Shown in pieces: positions 15,221-64,000 of a stretch of DNA of 64,000 nt. The DNA lies in contig JAUPKX010000007.1 of assembly GCA_030837225.1 (NCBI GenBank), forward strand, positions 158,657-222,656. The letters are read 5' to 3'. Both the position numbers and the translations under genes were made by a program. The notes under the pieces were generated by a model. That model had not been told where the DNA came from and did no database searches. It saw only the letters and a program-made list of their open reading frames with translations. Numbering within the stretch: the stretch's first letter is position 1; each line of letters opens with the position of its first letter. The DNA is from Patescibacteria group bacterium (GTDB lineage Bacteria > Patescibacteriota > Minisyncoccia > Phycocordibacterales > Phycocordibacteraceae).

Positions 15221-15355
15221 ACGTACTAAGATCAGTGGTAAACGTGCCGCGTCGTACGCGATGTACGATCGTATGTATTAAAGATAGCATGTGGGTATCT
15301 GTGGAATGTGTGACGGAGATACAGAAAAGAGCGCCATGCGGCGCTCTTTTCTTTT

Positions 15356-15428
15356 GGTGCGGGATAGGAGAATCGGACTCCTGCTCTCAGTTTGGAAAAC
15401 TGATGTTCTACCATTAAACTAATCCCGC
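15356..15428 (-). tRNA. tRNA-Gly (anticodon TCC), CCA encoded
   Basis: GCGGGATTAGTTTAATGGTAGAACATCAGTTTTCCAAACTGAGAGCAGGAGTCCGATTCTCCTATCCCGCACCA read on minus strand; cloverleaf parsed by hand. Confidence 0.85.
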
Positions 15429-15475
15429 TTCGGCTCGAGAATACCATATTCTAGAGCCCTCTGTCTTCTTCCTAG

Positions 15476-15546
15476 TCGGGGTGCGGAGAATCGAACTCCG
15501 TCAACTACTTCCCAAAAGTAGCGTACTACCGGTATACGACACCCCG
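15476..15546 (-). tRNA. tRNA-Pro (anticodon TGG), C1:G72, no CCA encoded
   Basis: CGGGGTGTCGTATACCGGTAGTACGCTACTTTTGGGAAGTAGTTGACGGAGTTCGATTCTCCGCACCCCGA on minus strand. Confidence 0.85.
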
Positions 15547-15905
15547 AGCGAACGATAGGATGCGCAGCAGCACATCCCGACAGGAATACCTTCTCATGAA
15601 TCTCCTGTCTTCGCTATCCTAACAGATTTATATGATTTGCGGCAGAGAGCCTCAGAATCTCTTTAAGTTAGGTCTATGGGGGTCTCTTATTTTGTGGATA
15701 CATGTCGAATAGCTTCATGTCTCTCAACACAGAGGTCTTTGAGAGAGACTTATATAAAACCTAGCAAACGTAAGGGTATTTTTAGGACTATGAAGATTTC
15801 TTTAGGTTTGTCCTATGTCCTTTATCCCCAGTATCAACAGACTTATCCCCCTTTGTCCCAAAAGCAAAAGACAGCCGATTGGGCTGTCTTTTGCTTTCTC
15901 ACGCT

Positions 15906-15979
15906 TGGTGCGGATAGGGAGAATCGAACTCCCGCTATATCATTGGCAACGATATGTTCTACCACTAAACTATATCCGC
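15906..15979 (-). tRNA. tRNA-Gly (anticodon GCC), CCA encoded
   Basis: GCGGATATAGTTTAGTGGTAGAACATATCGTTGCCAATGATATAGCGGGAGTTCGATTCTCCCTATCCGCACCA on minus strand; hairpin terminator (AAAGACAGCC-gatt-GGCTGTCTTT) downstream at about 15870-15900. Confidence 0.85.
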
Positions 15980-16666
15980 GCTGGGTTTTATACTCTCATA
16001 ATACGCGCTATTCATCAATTCCCCTGGCATCAGGGATATCCACGCTAGAACCTTAGCCTTGAAATAGGCACTTGATACAGTAATCAAACAGACACCGTGC
16101 GAGAGACGTCGTGTCTTGTGGCGACCATTGATTGTTGTTGTTTTGGTGAAATTCTCCTCAGGCAGACCAGTGGCGGCCACCCAGTATCTCCGACACTGAT
16201 CATCATTTAAGTCAGGATAGATGAGTATTTGTGCCCTTACCCTTTCCATAGGTATTCGGCAAACATGTAAGACAAAGAACACATAAAGCCTAATCATTTC
16301 AGAGTCTGTGTTCGTAAGCCTTACGACAGATTTGCCAAGCTTCGTGCCTTCGCCCCAATACAGCATTATGCCTGCTATGAATAGCGGGTTGTATTTTAGG
16401 ACCTCGAATTCTTCAGTAGCTACCTTTCTCGCTTCATCGTACGCAAGCTCAAGATTCTTTCCACGCGTTTTGTTCAAAGTCCTAATTCTTAGAGTGTGTT
16501 GGACTCGAGCCGCTTCGGAAAGTTTGTCTCGTATTTTTTCAGACCAATCCTCTTTCCCGAACCATCCAGACAGGGTACTTCGCGGTACTTCAAGAATCTC
16601 GATAATTTCTTTATAACTCTTACCCGAAAGCCTTAGGTGCCTCGCGGCTTCTTTATCAGTACGCAT
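15965..16666 (-). CDS. HTH + LAGLIDADG-like homing-endonuclease-family protein, tRNA-adjacent
   Basis: N-terminal HTH (GKSYKEIIEILEVPRSTLSGWF), motif LFIAGIMLYWGEGTK resembling LAGLIDADG block; segment VVRLTNTDSEMIRLY alignable to the paralog at 63465; last 15 nt overlap tRNA-Gly 5' end; lower GC. Confidence 0.5.
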   Translation of the reverse strand: MRTDKEAARHLRLSGKSYKEIIEILEVPRSTLSGWFGKEDWSEKIRDKLSEAARVQHTLRIRTLNKTRGKNLELAYDEARKVATEEFEVLKYNPLFIAGIMLYWGEGTKLGKSVVRLTNTDSEMIRLYVFFVLHVCRIPMERVRAQILIYPDLNDDQCRRYWVAATGLPEENFTKTTTINGRHKTRRLSHGVCLITVSSAYFKAKVLAWISLMPGELMNSAYYESIKPSADIV

Positions 16667-16734
16667 TCTATAATGATACTCCTCGGAAGTTCGACTTTCG
16701 AAAAACTTAGCGAAAGTTGTGTAACTTGTGGGGA

Positions 16735-17916
16735 TTACAGAGCGTACTCCGACGGAACGAACGAGATGTCCTTCAGTCTGCCAGCTCCCGAAACGAGAAC
16801 CTCACGCGGGAGCGCGTGCATATTGAAGTTACTTGCCATAGAGAATCCATAGGCACCGGCGTTCCGTATAACAAGAACATCATCCAGTTCTGGACGGATC
16901 ATCATACGATCGACAGCAAAGAGGTCTCCTGATTCACACACGTTGCCTGCGATCGTTATGGGAGTCTTGGGACCACGAGTGCGAGAGAGGTTCTCGATAG
17001 GATGATATGAGCCGTACATGGCATGTCGTATCAACTGATTGAACCCGGAGTTAACACCAACGAACTGATGTTTGTTTGTTTTCTTTTGATCTACTACTGA
17101 CACGAGCAAAGAACCGCTCTCAGCCACAATGAATCTGCCGGGCTCCATAGCAAACGACACATCACGTCCCATAGATTCCTTGAAGGCGCTGGTGAGAATC
17201 TTGAACTCCTTCCCTACCCTCTTCAAATCAAGCTGACTTTCCTCCGGCGCGTACGATATGCCGAGCCCTCCGCCGAAATCAATGTGTGTAAGGTTCGGAA
17301 ATCTCTTAGCCGTTTGTAAGAGCACACGCACTGACTTGAGGAACACTGTCGCATCAAGGACATTCGATCCAATGTGCTGCTGTATCCCCACAACCCTAAG
17401 GCCGTAGGTGTCTGTAATCCGCAGTGCCTCCGGAATATCCTCAAGTGTTATGCCAAATTTGCTATGCGGACCGCCTGTTATTACGTGCGCATGGTGCCCC
17501 GCACCAATACCCTGATTAAGACGCAGGGATACTTCCCTGCCGAGCGCTTTCCTACCCCACGTCTCAATCTGCGTAAGTGAATCAAGATGTATGCGGGCGC
17601 CTGAAGACGCTGCACTCGCTAGTTCTCTTTCCGTTAAACTCGCACACGTAAAGCTCGTATCTTTCGCTTTGAACCCCGCATGCTTTGCGAGCGCGAGTTC
17701 TCCAAGACTTACGGCCTCTGCTCCTATTCCTTGCTTGCGGATAATCCTCAGAATCTCAGGATTGCTGTTCGCCTTCATGGCGTAATGGATCGCGACGTTC
17801 GGGAAGTGTCGCCAGAGCTTCTGACACTGTGCCTCTATAACCTGCTGCTCATAGACATAGACTGGAGTCCCGTATGTCTGCGCCGCCTTATGTAGTACCT
17901 CTCTTCCCTTTTTCAT
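16735..17916 (-). CDS. lysA: diaminopimelate decarboxylase family (PLP-dependent fold-III decarboxylase)
   Basis: YAMKANSNPEILRII PLP-lysine motif, GxGLG and C-terminal beta-barrel motifs; start MKKGREV at 17916 (track extension to 17979 would overlap tRNA-Arg). Confidence 0.8.
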   Translation of the reverse strand: MKKGREVLHKAAQTYGTPVYVYEQQVIEAQCQKLWRHFPNVAIHYAMKANSNPEILRIIRKQGIGAEAVSLGELALAKHAGFKAKDTSFTCASLTERELASAASSGARIHLDSLTQIETWGRKALGREVSLRLNQGIGAGHHAHVITGGPHSKFGITLEDIPEALRITDTYGLRVVGIQQHIGSNVLDATVFLKSVRVLLQTAKRFPNLTHIDFGGGLGISYAPEESQLDLKRVGKEFKILTSAFKESMGRDVSFAMEPGRFIVAESGSLLVSVVDQKKTNKHQFVGVNSGFNQLIRHAMYGSYHPIENLSRTRGPKTPITIAGNVCESGDLFAVDRMMIRPELDDVLVIRNAGAYGFSMASNFNMHALPREVLVSGAGRLKDISFVPSEYAL

Positions 17917-17920
17917 GATG

Positions 17921-17993
17921 TGCGCCCGGAGGGAATCGAACCCCCGACCCTCTGTTCCGAAGACAGATGCTCTATCCACTGAGCTACGGGCGC
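17921..17993 (-). tRNA. tRNA-Arg (anticodon TCG), no CCA encoded
   Basis: GCGCCCGTAGCTCAGTGGATAGAGCATCTGTCTTCGGAACAGAGGGTCGGGGGTTCGATTCCCTCCGGGCGCA on minus strand. Confidence 0.8.
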
Positions 17994-48585: not shown

Positions 48586-49686
48586 ATGATTATTACTTTA
48601 GATAAAAAAGAATTCTCAGAAGGAGTGCAGAGCGTTGCACGCTTCGCAGAGAAGAGAAGCGGCACGCTTCCGGTACTCGCGGGTATCGCAATCATCGCGG
48701 GAGACGATGGCATCAAGCTTCGTGCTACGAATCTCGAGACTGGTGTCGACCTTAAGATCGAAGGCACTATAAAGAGCGATGGCGTTGTGGCGCTCCCGGC
48801 AGCAACCCTTCGCGATATTGCATCCTCGCTTTCTGGAAGTGGCACATTAACGCTCGAGCATTCGGGTGACACGGTCCTTGTATCAACCGGAAACGGCCGC
48901 TCAACGCTCAAGACCCTCGCGTTCGAGGATTTCCCTACACTTCCTCTCCCTGAGTCCCCACGGGCGAAATTCGAGCTTCCAGGAAGTCTCCTTAAGGCAC
49001 TTGTTATGTCGGTTGTGTCGTATGCATCCACGTCTACTGTTCGTCCTGAACTCGCGTCTGTCCTTATTGCAGGAGAAGGAAGCGCCCTTAAGGCGGTTGC
49101 CACAGATTCTTTCCGTCTTGCAGAGAAGAAAGTATCGCTTTCAAGCTCCATTGCAGCGTTCTCGATGCTTATTCCTGCAAAGAATGCGATTGATATCATG
49201 CAGACATTGCCTGACGAGACTATTGAAATCGCGGTAGACGAGCACCAGTGCGCGTTCTACTGGAAGAAGGGTGTCCTTACGACTCGTCTCGTTACCGCTA
49301 ACTATCCGGACTACACCCAGATTATCCCAAAGTCCTTTGTCTCTGAGGCAACCGTCCTTAAGAAGGACTTCGAGGCGGCACTCAAGCGTACTGCTATCTT
49401 CTCGGACACCTTCCAGAAGGTGCGTCTTGGGTTTGATGCAGGATCAAAAGCAGTTGCACTCTCGGCACAGAATGCAGATGTAGGGGATTCAGCTGAATCT
49501 ATTCCTGCTGCTATCTCAGGAGATGCGGTTGAGCTCTCCTTCAACCATCGGTATCTTTCAGCGCCAATCTCAACCATTGCTGCAGAGAGTATTTCTTTGT
49601 CTGCAAGCGGTATTGGTAGAGCAATGGTTATGCGAGGTTCAGGGGACACTTCGTTCTTGTATCTCGTGATGCCGATGAATCAGTAG
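48586..49686 (+). CDS. dnaN: DNA polymerase III beta sliding clamp
   Basis: Three-domain beta-clamp, 366 aa, immediately after dnaA. Confidence 0.9.
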   Translation: MIITLDKKEFSEGVQSVARFAEKRSGTLPVLAGIAIIAGDDGIKLRATNLETGVDLKIEGTIKSDGVVALPAATLRDIASSLSGSGTLTLEHSGDTVLVSTGNGRSTLKTLAFEDFPTLPLPESPRAKFELPGSLLKALVMSVVSYASTSTVRPELASVLIAGEGSALKAVATDSFRLAEKKVSLSSSIAAFSMLIPAKNAIDIMQTLPDETIEIAVDEHQCAFYWKKGVLTTRLVTANYPDYTQIIPKSFVSEATVLKKDFEAALKRTAIFSDTFQKVRLGFDAGSKAVALSAQNADVGDSAESIPAAISGDAVELSFNHRYLSAPISTIAAESISLSASGIGRAMVMRGSGDTSFLYLVMPMNQ

Positions 49687-49746
49687 GTTTGATCTCCAGA
49701 CCCCAGCAATTGATATTTGGTACTTGTTCTCTTTTACCAAGCAACC

Positions 49747-50379
49747 CTACTTTATTACTTCAAGCTGGCAAGTCTTTTCATCGCAATAAATTACTTCGCC
49801 ACGTACACTGATAGCACTGAAAACAAACGTACCGTCACTTGTATCGCTGTCACCTTTTGTACTGAGACGCCACCCTTTAGGAAACCCATCTTGGGTAAAG
49901 TTCTCTTGATCATCGTGCAGTGGGTAGTACCAGGAACCTGTAGGGGCAGAGGCGCACATACTACCAGGATTTGGATTGTACTGTTGAGTAGGATACTGCA
50001 AGTTGTACCCAGCTAATACGCACTGCAAAGCGATTTCGCGCCTTGATTCCATGAACTCAAGTACAGTTGATGCAGGAAGTACTTCTCTCTCGGGTACGAG
50101 TCCTCCCCAACGAGTAACTACACCAATGAATGAGACAGCAAATAGTACTAGTAAAATTGAAAGAAGAGTCCAACGCTTTTGAAAGAAAAGTGCGAGGAGT
50201 GCTATAAGTGCAAACGCAAGAAGAACTACACCGATCAAAAGCCTCATTGGTTGGAAGTCATCTCCAATACCAATATTGAGGGTGAGAGGATCAAGAATAA
50301 AGCTCAGACCGCCAATGAAGACCGCAACAAAAATTGGAACAGCGACCATCACTATATGTCTATGATTTGTTGGGTCCAT
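49747..50379 (-). CDS. membrane protein, hypothetical (AT-richer island)
   Basis: Four TM helices then extracellular Cys-containing domain. Confidence 0.45.
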   Translation of the reverse strand: MDPTNHRHIVMVAVPIFVAVFIGGLSFILDPLTLNIGIGDDFQPMRLLIGVVLLAFALIALLALFFQKRWTLLSILLVLFAVSFIGVVTRWGGLVPEREVLPASTVLEFMESRREIALQCVLAGYNLQYPTQQYNPNPGSMCASAPTGSWYYPLHDDQENFTQDGFPKGWRLSTKGDSDTSDGTFVFSAISVRGEVIYCDEKTCQLEVIK

Positions 50380-50412
50380 GAAAGTTTAGATTGCTTCCAA
50401 TTTATCATGCTG

Positions 50413-50437
50413 GTGCCAACATCGTCGCAGACTGCCT
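50413..50437 (+). repeat. 25-bp motif variant GTGCCAACATCGTCGCAGACTGCCT (copy c)
   Basis: 22/25 identical to copies a/b; 56 nt upstream of 50494 gene. Confidence 0.7.
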
Positions 50438-50493
50438 AAGGTGGATATGTTGATATTTCATTCTGTAATCTAGAAGACTTATATACTCTAACT

Positions 50494-50856
50494 ATGAATA
50501 CATCACCATCAGAGACAGGTAAGCGGCCCGTAATCATCAGCATAATATGTGTAGTCGGATTCCTGGGCGGCATCCTCTCCCTCGCAGGAATTATAATTCC
50601 TGCTTCCCGAGCAATGCTTGTAGAAAGCTACGGAATGTCATTTGTGATTCTAACTGCCGTGCTAACCATCCTGACGTTTGCGAGTCTCATCGGATTCTGG
50701 AAGATGAAGAAATGGGGACTCTACACATATATCGTGGCCACTGTTCTCGGAATGGTCGGAGGCCTGTACCTAGGATTACCATTCAACGTTCTTAGTTACA
50801 TAGTCCCCACAGCGATAGTTGTTACTGGTCTCTTTTATTTCAAGCGTTTCAGGTAG
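50494..50856 (+). CDS. small four-TM membrane protein, hypothetical
   Basis: Hydrophobic helices throughout. Confidence 0.5.
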   Translation: MNTSPSETGKRPVIISIICVVGFLGGILSLAGIIIPASRAMLVESYGMSFVILTAVLTILTFASLIGFWKMKKWGLYTYIVATVLGMVGGLYLGLPFNVLSYIVPTAIVVTGLFYFKRFR

Positions 50857-50865
50857 TCTACAAAG

Positions 50866-50895
50866 CAAAAACCGCACTTAGTGCGGTTTTTCTTT
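50866..50895. terminator. bidirectional terminator AAAAACCGCACTTAGTGCGGTTTTTCTTT
   Basis: Between converging genes 50494-50856 and PBP gene. Confidence 0.6.
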
Positions 50896-50904
50896 ATTTC
50901 ATAA

Positions 50905-53100
50905 CTAATTATTCTCCTGCCTCTGCCTCCTCCGTTCTTCGCGATCAAGAGCACGTTGTTCGTCCTCGGTTAACTCAGGAACTGGTTCTGTAGTGGTTGC
51001 AGTTTCTTGCTGCATCATGCCCGTCCACATCTGGATTGGTGTTTCCCAGTATGCGAGCTGTGGATCAGAATACGGGTTAACCGGCGGAGGACCTTGAGGA
51101 TTCTCCTTGTTGGTTAAGAGAAGAAGGGAGTGGTAGCTCACAACACCGCGAAGTACTGCCGGGGCGCTCTCAGGAATGCCTGGCGGCTCATTAAAGTATT
51201 CCTTCGGTACCTTTGTAAGTGCTACGTCCATAAATGCACGCCACATAGGAGCTACGATGTAGCCGGCAATTTCCTTAACCATCGGCGTGTTGTCGTTGTT
51301 TCCAGCCCACACCGCAACCGCGAGCGTCGGGGAGTAGCCAACGGTCCATGCATCGCGTGATTCGTTGGTGGTACCGGTCTTTGCCGCTACATCGTAGTCC
51401 GTGAAGGCAAGTGGATTAACCGGATTGTAGGAAGGAATACGTGCCTGATTGTCTGACATGATGTCAGCAATCTGACGCGCAACACCCTGATCGATAGCTT
51501 GTTCAGGTGCTGGTGTGAACTTCTCAATAACACGCCCCTTCATGTCACGGATCTCGAGGATACCGGTTGGGGGATTCCTAACACCGTCATTTGCAAACAC
51601 ACCCATGGCACTTGCCATCTGGAGAGGGGAGACCTCAGCAGCGCCAAGCGCAAAGGAGAGTCCGTAATCTTTCGCGGTTCCAAGGGAGGTGATTCCCATG
51701 CGAGTTGAAAGATTAATCACGTTATCAATTCCTGCGAGGTAGAGCGCCTTAACTGCTGGAATGTTGATTGATTGTGCGAGTGCGGTACGGAACGTCATAG
51801 GGCCACGGAACGTTAGGTCATAGTTCTGTGGTGCGTAGCAGGGAGGCTCGCTGTTTCCGGTGTCAGAAGGTGAGCAGGCGGTTGAGAACTGCGTCGGCAC
51901 ATCAAAGATAACGGTCTCTGGGGTGTAGCCCTTCTCAATAGCGGCTGCGTACACGAATGGCTTAAACGAGGAACCTGGCTGGCGGGGAGCAACCGCAACA
52001 TTGTAGTTGCCGGGAATAATCTCATCGAAGTAATCACGCGAGCCAACCATAGAAAGGATCTGTCCGGTCTTTGGGTCGATTGCAACGAGAGCCGCGTTTG
52101 AAGCATTGAACTTTGCAGTGTTTGCGAGGGCGTATTCCTTCACGATAGACTGCGCTGCGTTCTGCATTTCTGCATCGAGGGTGGTTATAACCGAAAGACC
52201 TTGTGTCACTACGTCTGGGCCATACTTTTGTTCAAGAAGCCCCTCAATATAGAAGACGAAGTGCGGCGCAAGGATCGAGTTGTTCTGCTGGCGACTGAAG
52301 ACAACGAGCTCGCGCTTTGCGGACGCAGCTTCTTCTGCGGTGAGGTACCCGAGATACTCCATGCGATCGATCACATAGTCCTTACGAACATCGAGCTCGT
52401 CACGATTGTTGCCGTACGGGGAGTAATAGGTAGGAAGCTGGGGGATCGCGGCCAGATACGCAGCCTCGGCAACAGAAAGATCATTCGCGCTCTTTCCATA
52501 GAACGAACGACTGGCTACTTCTGCGCCGTAGAGAGTTCCACCGTACGGGGTTACGTTGAAATAGAATTCAAGAATCTGGTCCTTGGTGTACTTCTGCTCG
52601 AGTTTCCAAGCGAGTACCCATTCCTGAAACTTACGAATAGGACTCTTAACACCTGACAGAATCGTGTTCTTTACTACCTGCTGCGTTATGGTCGACCCAC
52701 CCTGAGCAAAGGAAAGGGTCTGAATATCAACCCAAATAGCACGCGCAACCGCCTTCAAGGATACGCCGCTATGGTTGTAGAACTCAGAGTCCTCAATAGC
52801 GATAGCTGCTTTCTGGAGATTTGGTGAGATTTCAGCCAGGGGTACGATGTTCCGGCGCACGTCATGGTTGAGATCGTAGAGCACGGTCTTTCCAGTGCGG
52901 TCGTAGATCTTCGTAGACTGCGCTACCTTCCGGGAGTCAAAGGAGTTCAGGTCCGGAATTGGTGTAAGGGCAGCCCAGAGGATACCCGCACCAGCCAAAA
53001 GCATGAGGCCACCAACACCAATAAAGAGGATACGGAGCACAGGATGGGGATTCTCGAGGTGTGCACGCACGTTGAGCTTCTTGCGGGGTCGTTTCGGCAT
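50905..53100 (-). CDS. mrcA: class A penicillin-binding protein (transglycosylase + transpeptidase)
   Basis: GT51 motifs EDSEFYNHSGV, GGSTITQQ; TPase motifs SSFKP, SIN (AQSINIPAV), KTGTT. Confidence 0.9.
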   Translation of the reverse strand: MPKRPRKKLNVRAHLENPHPVLRILFIGVGGLMLLAGAGILWAALTPIPDLNSFDSRKVAQSTKIYDRTGKTVLYDLNHDVRRNIVPLAEISPNLQKAAIAIEDSEFYNHSGVSLKAVARAIWVDIQTLSFAQGGSTITQQVVKNTILSGVKSPIRKFQEWVLAWKLEQKYTKDQILEFYFNVTPYGGTLYGAEVASRSFYGKSANDLSVAEAAYLAAIPQLPTYYSPYGNNRDELDVRKDYVIDRMEYLGYLTAEEAASAKRELVVFSRQQNNSILAPHFVFYIEGLLEQKYGPDVVTQGLSVITTLDAEMQNAAQSIVKEYALANTAKFNASNAALVAIDPKTGQILSMVGSRDYFDEIIPGNYNVAVAPRQPGSSFKPFVYAAAIEKGYTPETVIFDVPTQFSTACSPSDTGNSEPPCYAPQNYDLTFRGPMTFRTALAQSINIPAVKALYLAGIDNVINLSTRMGITSLGTAKDYGLSFALGAAEVSPLQMASAMGVFANDGVRNPPTGILEIRDMKGRVIEKFTPAPEQAIDQGVARQIADIMSDNQARIPSYNPVNPLAFTDYDVAAKTGTTNESRDAWTVGYSPTLAVAVWAGNNDNTPMVKEIAGYIVAPMWRAFMDVALTKVPKEYFNEPPGIPESAPAVLRGVVSYHSLLLLTNKENPQGPPPVNPYSDPQLAYWETPIQMWTGMMQQETATTTEPVPELTEDEQRALDREERRRQRQENN

Positions 53101-53832: not shown

Positions 53833-54393
53833 CTAGTCGCTTTCGTTACTCTCGTATCCGCGCGCGTTTGTGAACACGCGTTGCACGTCGTCGTTTTCGT
53901 CGATGAGGTCGAAGATCTTGCCGAGTGATTCTTCGTCCACTTCTGAGAGATCCATCAAAGGCTCGTTCGGAGCGAACTTGCCATCGGGAGACTTCTGGAA
54001 TGCCCAAGCCGCTGATCCTGGAGAGCCGAGCTCGAAGCCGCTCTTTGAAATAAGATGCTTAATCTCTTGGGTTGTGCGGTTTGTGTTGTCCGTAAGAGTG
54101 TCGATTATTATCGCAGTACCTCCTGGTCCGTACCATTCGTACACTACCTGCGATAGTTCGCCCGCTTCTTTCGATGCACCCTTTGTTACGGCGCGTTCAA
54201 TATTGTCTTTGGGCATGTTCGCAGCTTTCGCTCGCTCGATAGCAGCTGCGAGGCCTGGAGAGGAGAGATTGCCGCCTGCTTTCTTTGCTTCAATAGCGAT
54301 TAGCTTCGCGAAGCGAGAGAACGTCTTCGATCGGGCAGCGTCCGTAACGCCTTTCTGTCTCTTAATCTGTGACCATTTGCTGTGTCCTGACAT
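53833..54393 (-). CDS. yebC: YebC/PmpR-family transcriptional regulator
   Basis: MSGHSKWSQIKRQKG N-terminus diagnostic of YebC family. Confidence 0.85.
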   Translation of the reverse strand: MSGHSKWSQIKRQKGVTDAARSKTFSRFAKLIAIEAKKAGGNLSSPGLAAAIERAKAANMPKDNIERAVTKGASKEAGELSQVVYEWYGPGGTAIIIDTLTDNTNRTTQEIKHLISKSGFELGSPGSAAWAFQKSPDGKFAPNEPLMDLSEVDEESLGKIFDLIDENDDVQRVFTNARGYESNESD

Positions 54394-54454
54394 AGACGTA
54401 TTTTACCCCACAAACCCTACTCCAGGTTTTTGTTAATTTAATTTAGGGCACGCC

Positions 54455-54479
54455 ATTATTGTTGTCCCAGACCGTCACA
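54455..54479 (+). repeat. weak, partial copy of the 25-bp motif (core GTCCCAGAC)
   Basis: About 12/21 identities to consensus; upstream of 54513 gene. Confidence 0.3.
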
Positions 54480-54512
54480 GTGTTTATGGGGCCCCGTGAC
54501 TATAATAGTTAT

Positions 54513-55283
54513 ATGAACCGACTACACATACTTTGTGCACTGCTAACAATCATCCTCCTTGGAGCAAGTGCGTACTTCTATTTTCTCTACTCAGGAACCC
54601 TCATGGATTTTTCTGGCGAAAATGTAACGGAAAACACTATTGCTATCAGCGAACCGGAGACAGAAAGTGGGCTAATTTCTCACAACCGTGTTGAACCATA
54701 TGTGCCCATTTCTCCAACAGCTGTAAGAAACGGAGACCTGACCGTAGTTACTGATCCTGAGGTCGGAATCGTATTCGAGTATCCTGCCGACTGGGGACCG
54801 CTATCAGTAAAGGACGAGCGCGGAACTTGTAGTGGGCAAGTTGCTAAATCGGACCCATGTAATCAAAGAACATATAGTTTTGATCAGATAGCGGGAGGTA
54901 TTTTCATGAGCGCACAGACAGGCCTTTCAAGAAACTACCCTGTAGGTCGCGGTCCGTATTGGGGTGACAGTGCTGCAAAACTTACGAGTGAATTCATTTA
55001 CGGGCCGTACCCGCCAGGCTCAGTTTCATTATGGAAATCAGGTTCTACACTTATGATAAGCAATAGTGGTCTAAGTATTCGAAAGCTAATAGATACCAAC
55101 TACATCACCTCAGGGGATGAACCAGGCAGGGTAGTGACCTTCTATCATCTTTCTCAACCCGAAAGACCGTATCAGGGTATTCTACTCACACAGGAAAGAC
55201 TTACTGACGACACGAACTCAAACATTGGGCGCCTCTTTGAGGAAGTGCTCGTTAAAAGTCTCAAAGAGATACCCACTAATTAG
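54513..55283 (+). CDS. membrane-anchored extracellular protein, hypothetical
   Basis: Perfect TATAAT (54501-54506) 7 nt before ATG (leaderless-type); TM LHILCALLTIILLGASAYFYFLY. Confidence 0.5.
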   Translation: MNRLHILCALLTIILLGASAYFYFLYSGTLMDFSGENVTENTIAISEPETESGLISHNRVEPYVPISPTAVRNGDLTVVTDPEVGIVFEYPADWGPLSVKDERGTCSGQVAKSDPCNQRTYSFDQIAGGIFMSAQTGLSRNYPVGRGPYWGDSAAKLTSEFIYGPYPPGSVSLWKSGSTLMISNSGLSIRKLIDTNYITSGDEPGRVVTFYHLSQPERPYQGILLTQERLTDDTNSNIGRLFEEVLVKSLKEIPTN

Positions 55284-56262
55284 TACCCAAGAGATATTCC
55301 TTGCCCTTACTTGTGAGCACGCGCCCACGCGGAGACCGCTCAACAAACCCAAGTCTCAAGAGATAGGGCTCATACACATTCTCAACGGTATCGGGGTCTT
55401 CGTGTAGTGCTGAAGCTAGTGCACGGATACCAGCAGGACCGCTCTTAAAGGAATCCCTGAGTGTTGTGAGGTAGCGACGATCATCTTTGGTAAGACCCAG
55501 GGTGTCGATACCAAATAGTTCGCACGCGAGATCCGCTACTTCTGCGGAGAGTTCTTTATTCTCCACCTGCGAATAATCGCGAACACGCTTAAGAAGAGCA
55601 TTCGCAACGCGCGGTGTTGCGCGACTCCTGGAAGCAACACGTTCAATAACCTCGTCTGGGGCATTAAGACCAAGAACACCAGCCGAGCGGCGGATGATAC
55701 TTCGGAGATCCTCGTCTGTATAGAAATCGAGCTGGTATACACCGCCGCCGAACCGGGAACGAAGTGGAGAAGAGAGCTGCGCAACTCTCGTGGTTGCACC
55801 AACGAGTGTGAAAGGAGGGAGCGCGAGCTCAACCGTACGTGCGGACGGCCCTTTCCCTAGAATAATATCGAGTGATCCTGATTCAAGGGCAGGGTACAGG
55901 AGCTCTTCTACCTTAGAAGAGAGCTGGTGTATCTCGTCGATGAAAAGGACAGTGCCTGGCTCGAGATTCGTAAGGATTGAGGCCAAGTCAGCGGCACGTT
56001 CGATAGCGACGCCTGAGGTTGATTTGAGCGGAGCGTCCAGAGAAGCCGCTACAAGGTGGGCAAGGGTGGTCTTGCCGACGCCTGGCGGGCCATAGAATAG
56101 AATATGTTCCGGCATGTCTCCGCGCATGCGCGCAGCCTCCAAAACGACGGAAACATTGGCTTTTACGTGACCCTGGCCCACATAATCGTCCCAGGTAGAG
56201 GGCCGAAGCGCACTATCCAGGGCCTGATCACGGAGCTTAGGTAGGTCAGTAGGGCTTGACAT
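55276..56262 (-). CDS. ruvB: Holliday junction branch-migration ATPase RuvB
   Basis: Walker A GPPGVGKTTLA, Walker B LFIDEIH, sensor and winged-helix C-terminus. Confidence 0.95.
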   Translation of the reverse strand: MSSPTDLPKLRDQALDSALRPSTWDDYVGQGHVKANVSVVLEAARMRGDMPEHILFYGPPGVGKTTLAHLVAASLDAPLKSTSGVAIERAADLASILTNLEPGTVLFIDEIHQLSSKVEELLYPALESGSLDIILGKGPSARTVELALPPFTLVGATTRVAQLSSPLRSRFGGGVYQLDFYTDEDLRSIIRRSAGVLGLNAPDEVIERVASRSRATPRVANALLKRVRDYSQVENKELSAEVADLACELFGIDTLGLTKDDRRYLTTLRDSFKSGPAGIRALASALHEDPDTVENVYEPYLLRLGFVERSPRGRVLTSKGKEYLLGTN

Positions 56263-63325: not shown

Positions 63326-63397
63326 GCGCCTGTAGCTCAGCGGTAGAGCAACGGACTTTTAATCCGCAGGTCGATGGTTCGATCCCATCCGGGCGCA
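63326..63397 (+). tRNA. tRNA-Lys (anticodon TTT), no CCA encoded
   Basis: GCGCCTGTAGCTCAGCGGTAGAGCAACGGACTTTTAATCCGCAGGTCGATGGTTCGATCCCATCCGGGCGCA. Confidence 0.85.
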
Positions 63398-63464
63398 CAT
63401 GGCACCTTCGTTCAAAGAACAATGTATCTCACTGCGCAAACAAGACCACTCAATCGTGGAAATC

Positions 63465-64000
63465 ATGCGTATAACAGGAAGACCCAAAACAACGATTTAC
63501 GCACACATTCGCAACCTGCCTCTGAGTGAGAAGCGTCTCCGGTCCTATAGAAATGCATCAGGACAACATATACGTCAGTTCGCCGTTTCAAGGAAAGGGA
63601 AAAGCGAGAAGAAGTTTACTCCATTTAACGAGTGGACCCTTGAGACTGTACTTCTTGTTGCACACCTAACCTTCGACGGTAGTTTGGGACAAAGAATTGT
63701 CGCATATAGCAATCGTAGTGAGGCGCTCATCAATCGCGTAGAGTCCCTCATGAGCACAATCTACGCATATTTGCCAAAGAGATCCTTCGACTCTCACTCA
63801 GGAGTTTTGCGGACGAGTTATTACAATGTTTCGCTTGCGTTGTACCTAAAGAGTAAGTCAAGGGAGTTGCTCGCGGAGATTGAGAATTATGATCTCGAAC
63901 TAAAGAAAGAGTTCCTCAGGGCTTTCTTTGACGACGAAGGATGTATGGACTTAAAGCTAAAAACGAACAAGCGGAGAATACGTGGGTATCAAAAGGACGT
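63465..64000 (+). CDS. HTH + LAGLIDADG homing-endonuclease-family protein (partial, runs off window end), tRNA-adjacent
   Basis: Two LAGLIDADG-like blocks LLVAHLTFDGSLG and LRAFFDDEGCMD; N-terminal HTH-like GRPKTTIYAHIRNL; paralog of 15965-16666. Confidence 0.55.
   Translation, partial: MRITGRPKTTIYAHIRNLPLSEKRLRSYRNASGQHIRQFAVSRKGKSEKKFTPFNEWTLETVLLVAHLTFDGSLGQRIVAYSNRSEALINRVESLMSTIYAYLPKRSFDSHSGVLRTSYYNVSLALYLKSKSRELLAEIENYDLELKKEFLRAFFDDEGCMDLKLKTNKRRIRGYQKD

Follow-up and report, generated by a model that had tools for sequence, protein, structure and literature searches.

A putative homing-endonuclease-like gene family at the 5' flank of tRNA genes in Patescibacteria

T4 SegB is a free-standing GIY-YIG homing endonuclease encoded in a tRNA gene cluster, which recognises the TpsiC stem-loop motif of tRNA-gene DNA; it is absent from close relatives and is inherited together with the flanking tRNA genes (PMC2330249). 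In Patescibacteria, homing endonucleases of the LAGLIDADG_3 type have been studied in rRNA introns (PMC11270868). No account of endonuclease-like genes abutting tRNAs in this phylum was found in the literature that we searched. Here we analyse a stretch of 64,000 nucleotides (nt), referred to as the window, from a Patescibacteria group bacterium (assembly GCA_030837225.1, contig JAUPKX010000007.1, positions 158,657 to 222,656 of the forward strand), and within it an open reading frame (ORF) of 233 amino acids (aa), labelled gene X here, which abuts the 5' end of a co-oriented tRNA-Gly(GCC) gene (Table 1). From sequence comparisons we interpret X, with moderate confidence, as the cargo of a small selfish element, namely a free-standing homing-endonuclease-like gene at the 5' flank of tRNA-Gly(GCC) with a predicted nuclease activity. 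Comparisons between loci give strong evidence that X is site-specific, dispensable, subject to decay and exchanged; DNA cleavage by X, its recognition site and its dimerisation are what we infer. The searched literature contains no bacterial example of this targeting logic, with one clade per tRNA gene placed flush with the tRNA 5' end.

Position, occupancy and movement of gene X

An earlier note, made from the sequence of the window alone, had parsed three minus-strand tRNAs by hand and reported that the 233-aa ORF ended within one of them. ARAGORN and Rfam agree on the three tRNAs, and the stop codon of X (TAG, 15965–15967) coincides with the D-loop TAG of tRNA-Gly(GCC), so that the last 15 nt of the ORF are positions 1–15 of the tRNA. 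In a scan with one genome per species, relatives of X were found in 216 species, and 80 loci with 40–62% protein identity were kept. A co-oriented tRNA-Gly(GCC) is the next feature after X in 79 of them, and in the remaining locus a masked stretch of Ns runs into the tRNA 3' end. The distance from stop codon to tRNA ranges from −21 to +65 nt (80 loci, with a single read-through). Of these stops, 20 fall within the tRNA, 35 lie 0–10 nt before it and 25 lie 11–65 nt before it; the overlap is therefore incidental, tight abutment being the conserved feature. Conservation of the overlap itself, which the earlier note had raised, was thus not found, and since it occurs at only 20 of 80 loci, a function of the overlap as such is not supported.

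The other neighbours of X vary, although a gene for the CCA enzyme is usually near, and the gene order CCA enzyme, tRNA-Arg, tRNA-Gly, tRNA-Pro, tRNA-Gly is kept in the clade. In its intergenic, fixed position beside a conserved target gene, X resembles a free-standing homing gene. It is also low in GC, as had been noted before: 0.449 against a window mean of 0.52, within the lowest 1.9% among 700-nt windows.

Occupancy was estimated by searching metagenome contigs for the 3' half of tRNA-Gly(GCC) as found in the clade, a pattern that is blind to upstream content. At least 120 matches were obtained, 80 were examined, and 60 loci had enough upstream sequence. Intact X was present in 14, a remnant in one, and 45 were empty (approximately 25% occupied), so the gene is far from being a housekeeping gene kept at the same site in all relatives. 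The empty loci often have tRNA-Arg(TCG) 110–150 nt upstream of tRNA-Gly(GCC). In a tree built from the neighbouring CCA-enzyme gene, loci with X are dispersed among the branches, and every one of them has empty sisters, the closest relative of the window included. The same tRNA can be found at occupied and empty sites (L126 is identical to L090, and L116 to L152), which rules out a protective tRNA variant at occupied loci. The empty locus L152 has a spacer of 39 nt between tRNA-Arg and tRNA-Gly, and L008 has approximately 900 nt with X in that spot; in L007 the extra DNA stops 1 nt before the tRNA. In L162, only the last 30–40 codons of X remain before tRNA-Gly(GCC) (E 4e-5). A search for remnants in the 45 empty sites yielded none that was significant, the candidate being 15 residues in L146 (E ~0.3); this locus, the closest X-less relative of the window, has a different gene in the place of X. 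Sporadic presence with empty sites and a degenerate copy (L162) are both features of homing genes.

Divergence of X correlates with that of a neighbouring host gene at Pearson 0.67, compared with 0.85 for two host genes with each other. The clearest departure concerns L008 and L021, whose CCA enzymes are 97% identical (synonymous divergence, dS, 0.47) and whose flanks share 86–92% DNA identity, whereas X has only 54% protein identity between them and a saturated dS. The X of L008 and that of L021 are each nearest to copies from genomes more distant by host gene, and this discordance is a clear allele replacement. Horizontal movement is thus seen in L008/L021, while L035, L045 and L046 look vertical; in these three, X changes approximately 10 times faster than the neighbouring gene, and the ratio of nonsynonymous to synonymous divergence (dN/dS) of X is 0.09–0.17, which indicates that the protein is kept functional.

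Furthermore, ORFs similar to X (family hidden Markov model (HMM), E 1e-33 to 1e-50) abut the 5' ends of at least 10 other tRNAs, among them Arg(TCG), Gly(TCC), Val(GAC), Val(TAC), Lys(CTT), Ile(TAT), Ala(GGC) and Phe(GAA), and 15–16 of the 19 extra copies in the 80 loci abut a same-strand tRNA. The copies at Gly(GCC), Arg(TCG) and Gly(TCC) fell into separate clades in a neighbour-joining tree, in which clade membership matches tRNA identity. Two family copies at different tRNAs were found on single contigs in L161 (Arg(TCG) and Gly(TCC)), L163 and L132, and one genome can therefore host several clades. Distant relatives (27–32% identity) were detected on seven viral contigs of 41–527 kb (L210–L216, IMG/VR), and five of the seven lie inside tRNA arrays: the copy in L212 is 12 nt before tRNA-Val(TAC), and those in L213, L214 and L216 start 34–41 nt after a tRNA. 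Searches with X and one viral relative against cultured phage genomes (tblastn) gave no match. The earlier suggestion of a mobile homing-type element at tRNA loci is well supported by the fixed site, patchy occupancy, sister clades, remnant, allele replacement and phage-like arrays; its alternative, a domesticated endonuclease in tRNA or intron biology, found no direct support, and no intron is involved.

Several observations were made on the tRNA-Gly(GCC) genes of these loci. The discriminator base is A (...CCGCA) in the close group (L001–L048) and T in the distant one (L049–L080). CCA is mostly not encoded at the 3' ends in L001–L080, and the gene for the CCA-adding enzyme is the usual neighbour of the tRNA cluster. 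In L073, X and tRNA-Gly(GCC) occur in a bin labelled Bathyarchaeia archaeon, and the contig is probably a mis-binned patescibacterial one. In L066 (2440–2800), tRNA-Gly(GCC) is closely followed by a 79-aa GIY-YIG ORF (Pfam, E 6e-16), beyond which the tRNA 3' end is repeated (TACCCGCAC). The ORF looks like another endonuclease-type gene, inserted at the opposite end of this tRNA and accompanied by a short duplication.

The X protein and the LAGLIDADG_3 gene after tRNA-Lys

X is a member of an unannotated Patescibacteria family of approximately 220-aa proteins. By the source names of its homologues, the genome falls in Patescibacteria (Paceibacteria/Kaiserbacteria-like). All 355 close homologues (53–62% identity, nearly all 216–233 aa) are named 'hypothetical', and a profile search with the family retrieved 4742 cluster representatives at E<=1e-3 and 2844 at E<=1e-10. 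A confident AlphaFold model built from 30 homologues (predicted local distance difference test score, pLDDT, 89.8) comprises a helix-turn-helix (HTH), a long helix and an alpha/beta domain (Table 1), followed by a disordered tail (aa 228–233) which covers residues encoded by tRNA sequence. The alpha/beta domain begins with the helix PLFIAGIMLYWGEG and contains a basic loop (aa 179–191); we regard it as a putative catalytic or nucleic-acid-binding domain.

The N-terminal HTH claimed earlier was recovered. In the X of the window, Pfam finds the HTH only, and weakly (E 0.0045–0.034); across 98 diverse relatives, HTH_23 is matched in 81 (best E 1.7e-9), HTH_SB in 68 and HTH_7 in 12, and HTH_Tnp_1 is also among the HTH matches of the family. 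Pfam finds the HTH alone in the viral relatives as well, and PADLOC gave no match of X to any defence-system model. Weak TnsD-like matches were also obtained.

The 'LAGLIDADG-like' block of the earlier note, PLFIAGIMLYWGEGTK, is present, forms the opening helix of the C-terminal domain and is the best-conserved stretch of the family. However, no LAGLIDADG profile in Pfam matched X even at E<=10, and none is listed for the 98 relatives; the resemblance of the C-terminal domain to the LAGLIDADG fold is weak. The glutamate E106 of the motif Y-W-G-E-G (GEG motif) is kept in 30 of 30 members of the subfamily and in 75 of 98 of the wider family. A full-length profile alignment sets E106 opposite the E of F-D-G-E, and the region alone gives no significant alignment. 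The term 'LAGLIDADG-like' is therefore a resemblance and not a family membership.

The window contains a second tRNA-abutting gene, whose ATG (63399) follows directly after the last base of tRNA-Lys(TTT). It is a true LAGLIDADG_3 gene with two motifs, where the earlier note had read two LAGLIDADG blocks, and has 277 aa in an identical database protein. The junction of tRNA-Lys and ATG recurs in three relatives (L081–L087; 52–57% identity) with different other neighbours. Because the ATG is flush with the tRNA end, 3' processing of tRNA-Lys may release a leaderless mRNA beginning C-AUG, as the sequence suggests (tRNA punctuation).

The same note had called this gene a clear paralogue of X, which the comparison did not bear out beyond one module. 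BLASTP between the two gave E=13 and the X-family HMM gave E=0.67 on the tRNA-Lys ORF. Profile–profile comparison of the two families gave a probability of 96.5% over the full length; by domain (hhalign), the HTH+linker module scored 97.9% (E 3e-13), and comparison of the X C-terminal domain with the LAGLIDADG domains in the family of the tRNA-Lys gene gave 0.1–0.8%. The signal is confined to the N-terminal HTH and the start of the following helix, and thus the two genes share a DNA-binding module and no catalytic domain. A LAGLIDADG_3 gene welded to tRNA-Lys with the same N-terminal module supports the interpretation of X as a homing gene.

Promoters and other features of the window

In the window, the −10 box of X ends 6 nt before the ATG (TCGAAA-17-TATCAT-tataga-ATG). 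The close group has a conserved GAAC-type −35 box, a TATAAT-type −10 box, 6–8 nt and ATG, with a spacing of exactly 6 nt in 34 loci. This proximity implies a leaderless mRNA, and we predict one for X. At the other end of the gene, a TATAAA box in the 3' end of X lies 7 nt before tRNA position +1, and relatives have TATA(T/A)A boxes overlapping the X stop codon. Empty sites have an extended −10 box, TGGTATCAT or TGGTATTAT, approximately 10 nt before the tRNA. An Arg-type copy in L162 has its stop inside TGTATAAT, 9 nt before tRNA-Arg. No convincing sigma-70 −35 box for the tRNA could be placed within X. The tRNA promoter may thus sit inside the X ORF, the element seeming to replace what it displaces, and X and tRNA-Gly(GCC) probably form one transcription unit closed by a 3' hairpin. 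This terminator-like hairpin is absent from the consensus-scan listing.

In L051–L062 and L073, the 50 nt upstream of the X start codon contain an inverted repeat (e.g. TTGAACC ... GGTTCAA, with arms approximately 30 nt apart) on either side of the promoter, the left arm being the −35 box and the right one adjoining the ATG. Such an arrangement resembles the operator of a dimeric DNA-binding protein, which may be X itself. Read as its reverse complement, the −35 region of X (16680–16705 in the window; L001–L048) resembles a tRNA T-arm, e.g. GGGAGTTCGATT, and exact matches of at least 8 nt occur in 16% of loci compared with 3% of control windows. The resemblance might reflect mimicry of the target or the remains of a tRNA.

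Table 1. Coordinates of gene X, its modules and signals, and the tRNA genes and second tRNA-abutting gene of the window
Feature	Position	Strand	Basis
Gene X, 233-aa ORF (stop codon included)	15965-16666	-	ORF list
tRNA-Gly(GCC), resident gene abutted by X	15906-15979	-	ARAGORN, Rfam
tRNA-Pro(TGG)	15475-15546	-	ARAGORN, Rfam
tRNA-Gly(TCC), no adjoining X copy here	15355-15428	-	ARAGORN
tRNA-Arg(TCG), no adjoining X copy here	17920-17993	-	ARAGORN
tRNA-Lys(TTT), partner of the second tRNA-abutting gene	63326-63398	+	ARAGORN
Promoter-like site of X, TCGAAA / 17-nt spacer / TATCAT	16673-16701	-	consensus scan
HTH module, three helices, aa 3-36 of X	16559-16660	-	AlphaFold (AF2) model, Pfam, hhalign
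Long single linker helix, aa 40-90 of X	16397-16549	-	AF2 model, pLDDT ~90
C-terminal alpha/beta domain, aa 94-217 of X	16016-16387	-	AF2 model
-10-like box TATAAA, candidate tRNA promoter element in last X codons	15987-15992	-	read from sequence
Terminator-like hairpin AAAGCAAAAGACAGCC / GGCTGTCTTTTGCTTT just 3' of tRNA-Gly(GCC)	15857-15897	-	read from sequence
HTH + double-motif LAGLIDADG_3 gene, first 200 of 277 aa in window	63399-64000	+	identical database protein, profile matches

The neighbours of X in the window are genes for a pyridoxal-phosphate-dependent decarboxylase and a protein of the CCA-adding-enzyme type. The listed 414-aa ORF at 16735–17979, with a GTG start, reads through tRNA-Arg(TCG), and the true gene encodes an Orn/DAP/Arg decarboxylase, for which an ATG at 17916 is the most likely start. 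This gene was seen between tRNA-Arg and X in the window and L017 only. The tRNA-Gly(TCC) of the window is unoccupied because tRNA-Pro lies 46 nt upstream of it. An Rfam scan around X returned tRNAs and no other family. Downstream of tRNA-Gly(GCC), approximately 60 nt (15809–15873; ...GGGACAAAGGGGGATAAGTCTGTTGATACTGGGGATAAAGGAC...) are 75–88% conserved and have no match in Rfam; this stretch was found with and without X (L019, L021, L146, L152, L163 and others). Two more low-GC islands (0.43–0.46), at 49500–51100 and 54300–55300, encode small membrane-like or unannotated proteins and show no obvious tie to the tRNA elements.

Interpretation and comparison with known systems

In the mechanism that we propose, the element would occupy one precise site, a few nucleotides before tRNA-Gly(GCC). 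Its own promoter would set the start of the X mRNA at or beside the ATG, and its 3' end, running up to or into the tRNA with a −10-like box, could let the tRNA keep a promoter. X, probably as a dimer, would bind an unoccupied tRNA-Gly(GCC) locus via its HTH modules and C-terminal domain and break the DNA there, and repair from an occupied copy would carry the X gene in. Phages with X relatives in their tRNA arrays could ferry the gene between cells. The low GC of X and the conservation of its own promoter count in favour of such an element.

A number of results weigh against this interpretation. Pfam, NCBIfam, PHROGs and PADLOC return for X either the HTH or nothing, and no nuclease family; a sequence-profile search of the PDB with X gave no matches, LAGLIDADG included; and Foldseek with the X model against the PDB and BFVD viral models found nothing significant. 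Among 98 family representatives, 23 have another residue in place of the candidate catalytic E106. Purifying selection and divergence that tracks the host (the Pearson value of 0.67) would also fit a useful resident gene. Clean allele replacement was seen in one case, the trees are neighbour-joining trees without support values, and no pair of occupied and empty loci exceeds approximately 75% flank identity (best ~73–77% DNA identity). In addition, how an endonuclease would leave its own locus uncut is unexplained, since occupied and empty sites can share the same tRNA and the empty ones have no conserved upstream flank.

The main rival is that X is a host-serving DNA-binding regulator derived from an endonuclease, comparable to WhiA, which binds its own promoter and the tRNA gene and controls transcription of tRNA-Gly(GCC) without cleavage. 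Such a non-cleaving regulator would fit the strong HTH, which is the best-conserved module, the operator-like inverted repeats (TTGAAC...GTTCAA) around the X promoter in one subgroup, and the T-arm resemblance of the −35 region in some loci, as well as purifying selection, a divergence that partly follows the host gene and the loss of E106 in 23% of representatives. It fits the patchiness poorly. Three quarters of related loci have the same tRNA with an ordinary extended −10 box and no X, occupancy is scattered on the host tree, an allele swap has occurred between near-identical genomes, a remnant copy exists and relatives reside in phage-like tRNA arrays; a regulator needed by the host would not be so dispensable. 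Moreover, real homing endonucleases such as I-TevI are also known to autoregulate. We consider the regulator unlikely.

Another possible explanation is that X is a new site-specific transposase or recombinase which inserts upstream of tRNA genes by cut-and-paste or recombination. The precise insertion point, an HTH resembling transposase and resolvase types (HTH_SB, HTH_Tnp_1, HTH_7), the weak TnsD-like matches and the several paralogues per genome at different tRNAs would all suit such an enzyme, but neither sequence nor fold reveals a DDE, serine- or tyrosine-recombinase or HUH domain. Comparison of the junctions brought no terminal repeats or target duplications to notice, though no search dedicated to them was made. 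Each clade keeps to one tRNA, as homing endonucleases do. This explanation appears improbable to us.

Still less probable is a maturase-like RNA-binding factor that processes or stabilises a co-transcribed tRNA-Gly(GCC) precursor. LAGLIDADG proteins are able to serve as maturases, a basic loop is present in the C-terminal domain of X, and X and the tRNA are probably co-transcribed, from a promoter upstream of X to a hairpin downstream of the tRNA; yet the same tRNA works without X in most relatives, there is no intron or unusual tRNA feature, and the conserved module is a DNA-type HTH. Finally, an ordinary conserved hypothetical gene, lying next to the tRNA by chance or by inherited synteny, would agree with the conserved local gene order in the clade but is scarcely credible given 80 of 80 abutments down to 40% identity while other neighbours change, 15–16 of 19 extra paralogues abutting a same-strand tRNA where approximately 5% would be expected (a rough estimate), patchy occupancy and one allele replacement.

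If X is a homing gene of the kind proposed above, a large family (thousands of clusters, unannotated and lacking a recognised catalytic domain) would join the short list of homing-endonuclease types, and many 'hypothetical proteins' beside Patescibacteria tRNA genes would be explained. Annotators would also be warned that such ORFs can overlap tRNAs. The family would then be a natural set of proteins that bind or cut DNA at long sites with differing specificities. It would also offer a simple test case of a selfish gene that lodges between a gene and its promoter without harm to the host, by means of a leaderless mRNA and a promoter that lies within the coding region.

The closest working analogue of X appears to be T4 SegB. 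Like SegB, X is free-standing among tRNA genes, outside introns and patchy among relatives, and distant relatives of X lie in tRNA arrays on viral contigs. SegB has a GIY-YIG domain, whereas X has an alpha/beta domain with an N-terminal HTH and is known from sequence alone; moreover, X is chromosomal in Patescibacteria and welded to the exact 5' end of one tRNA, and its clades cover at least 10 tRNAs. The LAGLIDADG_3 endonucleases of Patescibacteria share the phylum with X, and the helix ending in G-E-G in X is reminiscent of their motif. With the tRNA-Lys gene of the window, X also shares the HTH+linker (probability 97.9%) and abutment to a tRNA. In contrast, no LAGLIDADG profile is found on X or the 98 relatives, the C-terminal domains are related with a probability below 1%, X has one such domain and not two, and it lies outside introns; the tRNA-Lys gene is 3' of its tRNA and X is 5' of its own.

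WhiA is a transcription factor with two degenerate LAGLIDADG domains and a C-terminal HTH, encoded by a vertically inherited core gene. X does not conform to this type, having one alpha/beta domain, an N-terminal HTH, a patchy distribution and horizontal exchange. The eukaryotic retrotransposon Ty3 inserts at the transcription start of tRNA genes, its integrase being guided by Pol III factors. Both Ty3 and the putative X element are selfish elements which use the few nucleotides before tRNA genes as a safe landing site and leave the tRNA functional. Ty3 takes an integrase route, whereas X would move by break and repair and consists of a single small gene without a reverse transcriptase. A bolder proposal, which we advance only tentatively and hold to be doubtful, is that the X family represents a new, non-LAGLIDADG class of homing endonucleases, in which a tRNA-gene-reading HTH, shared with a LAGLIDADG_3 lineage, is joined to a new alpha/beta nuclease domain. 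Its members would have radiated to at least 10 tRNA genes of Patescibacteria and their phages, occupying the flank at the transcription start and bringing with every copy a leaderless promoter and a replacement tRNA promoter, and the class would be a bacterial counterpart of Ty3-type elements.

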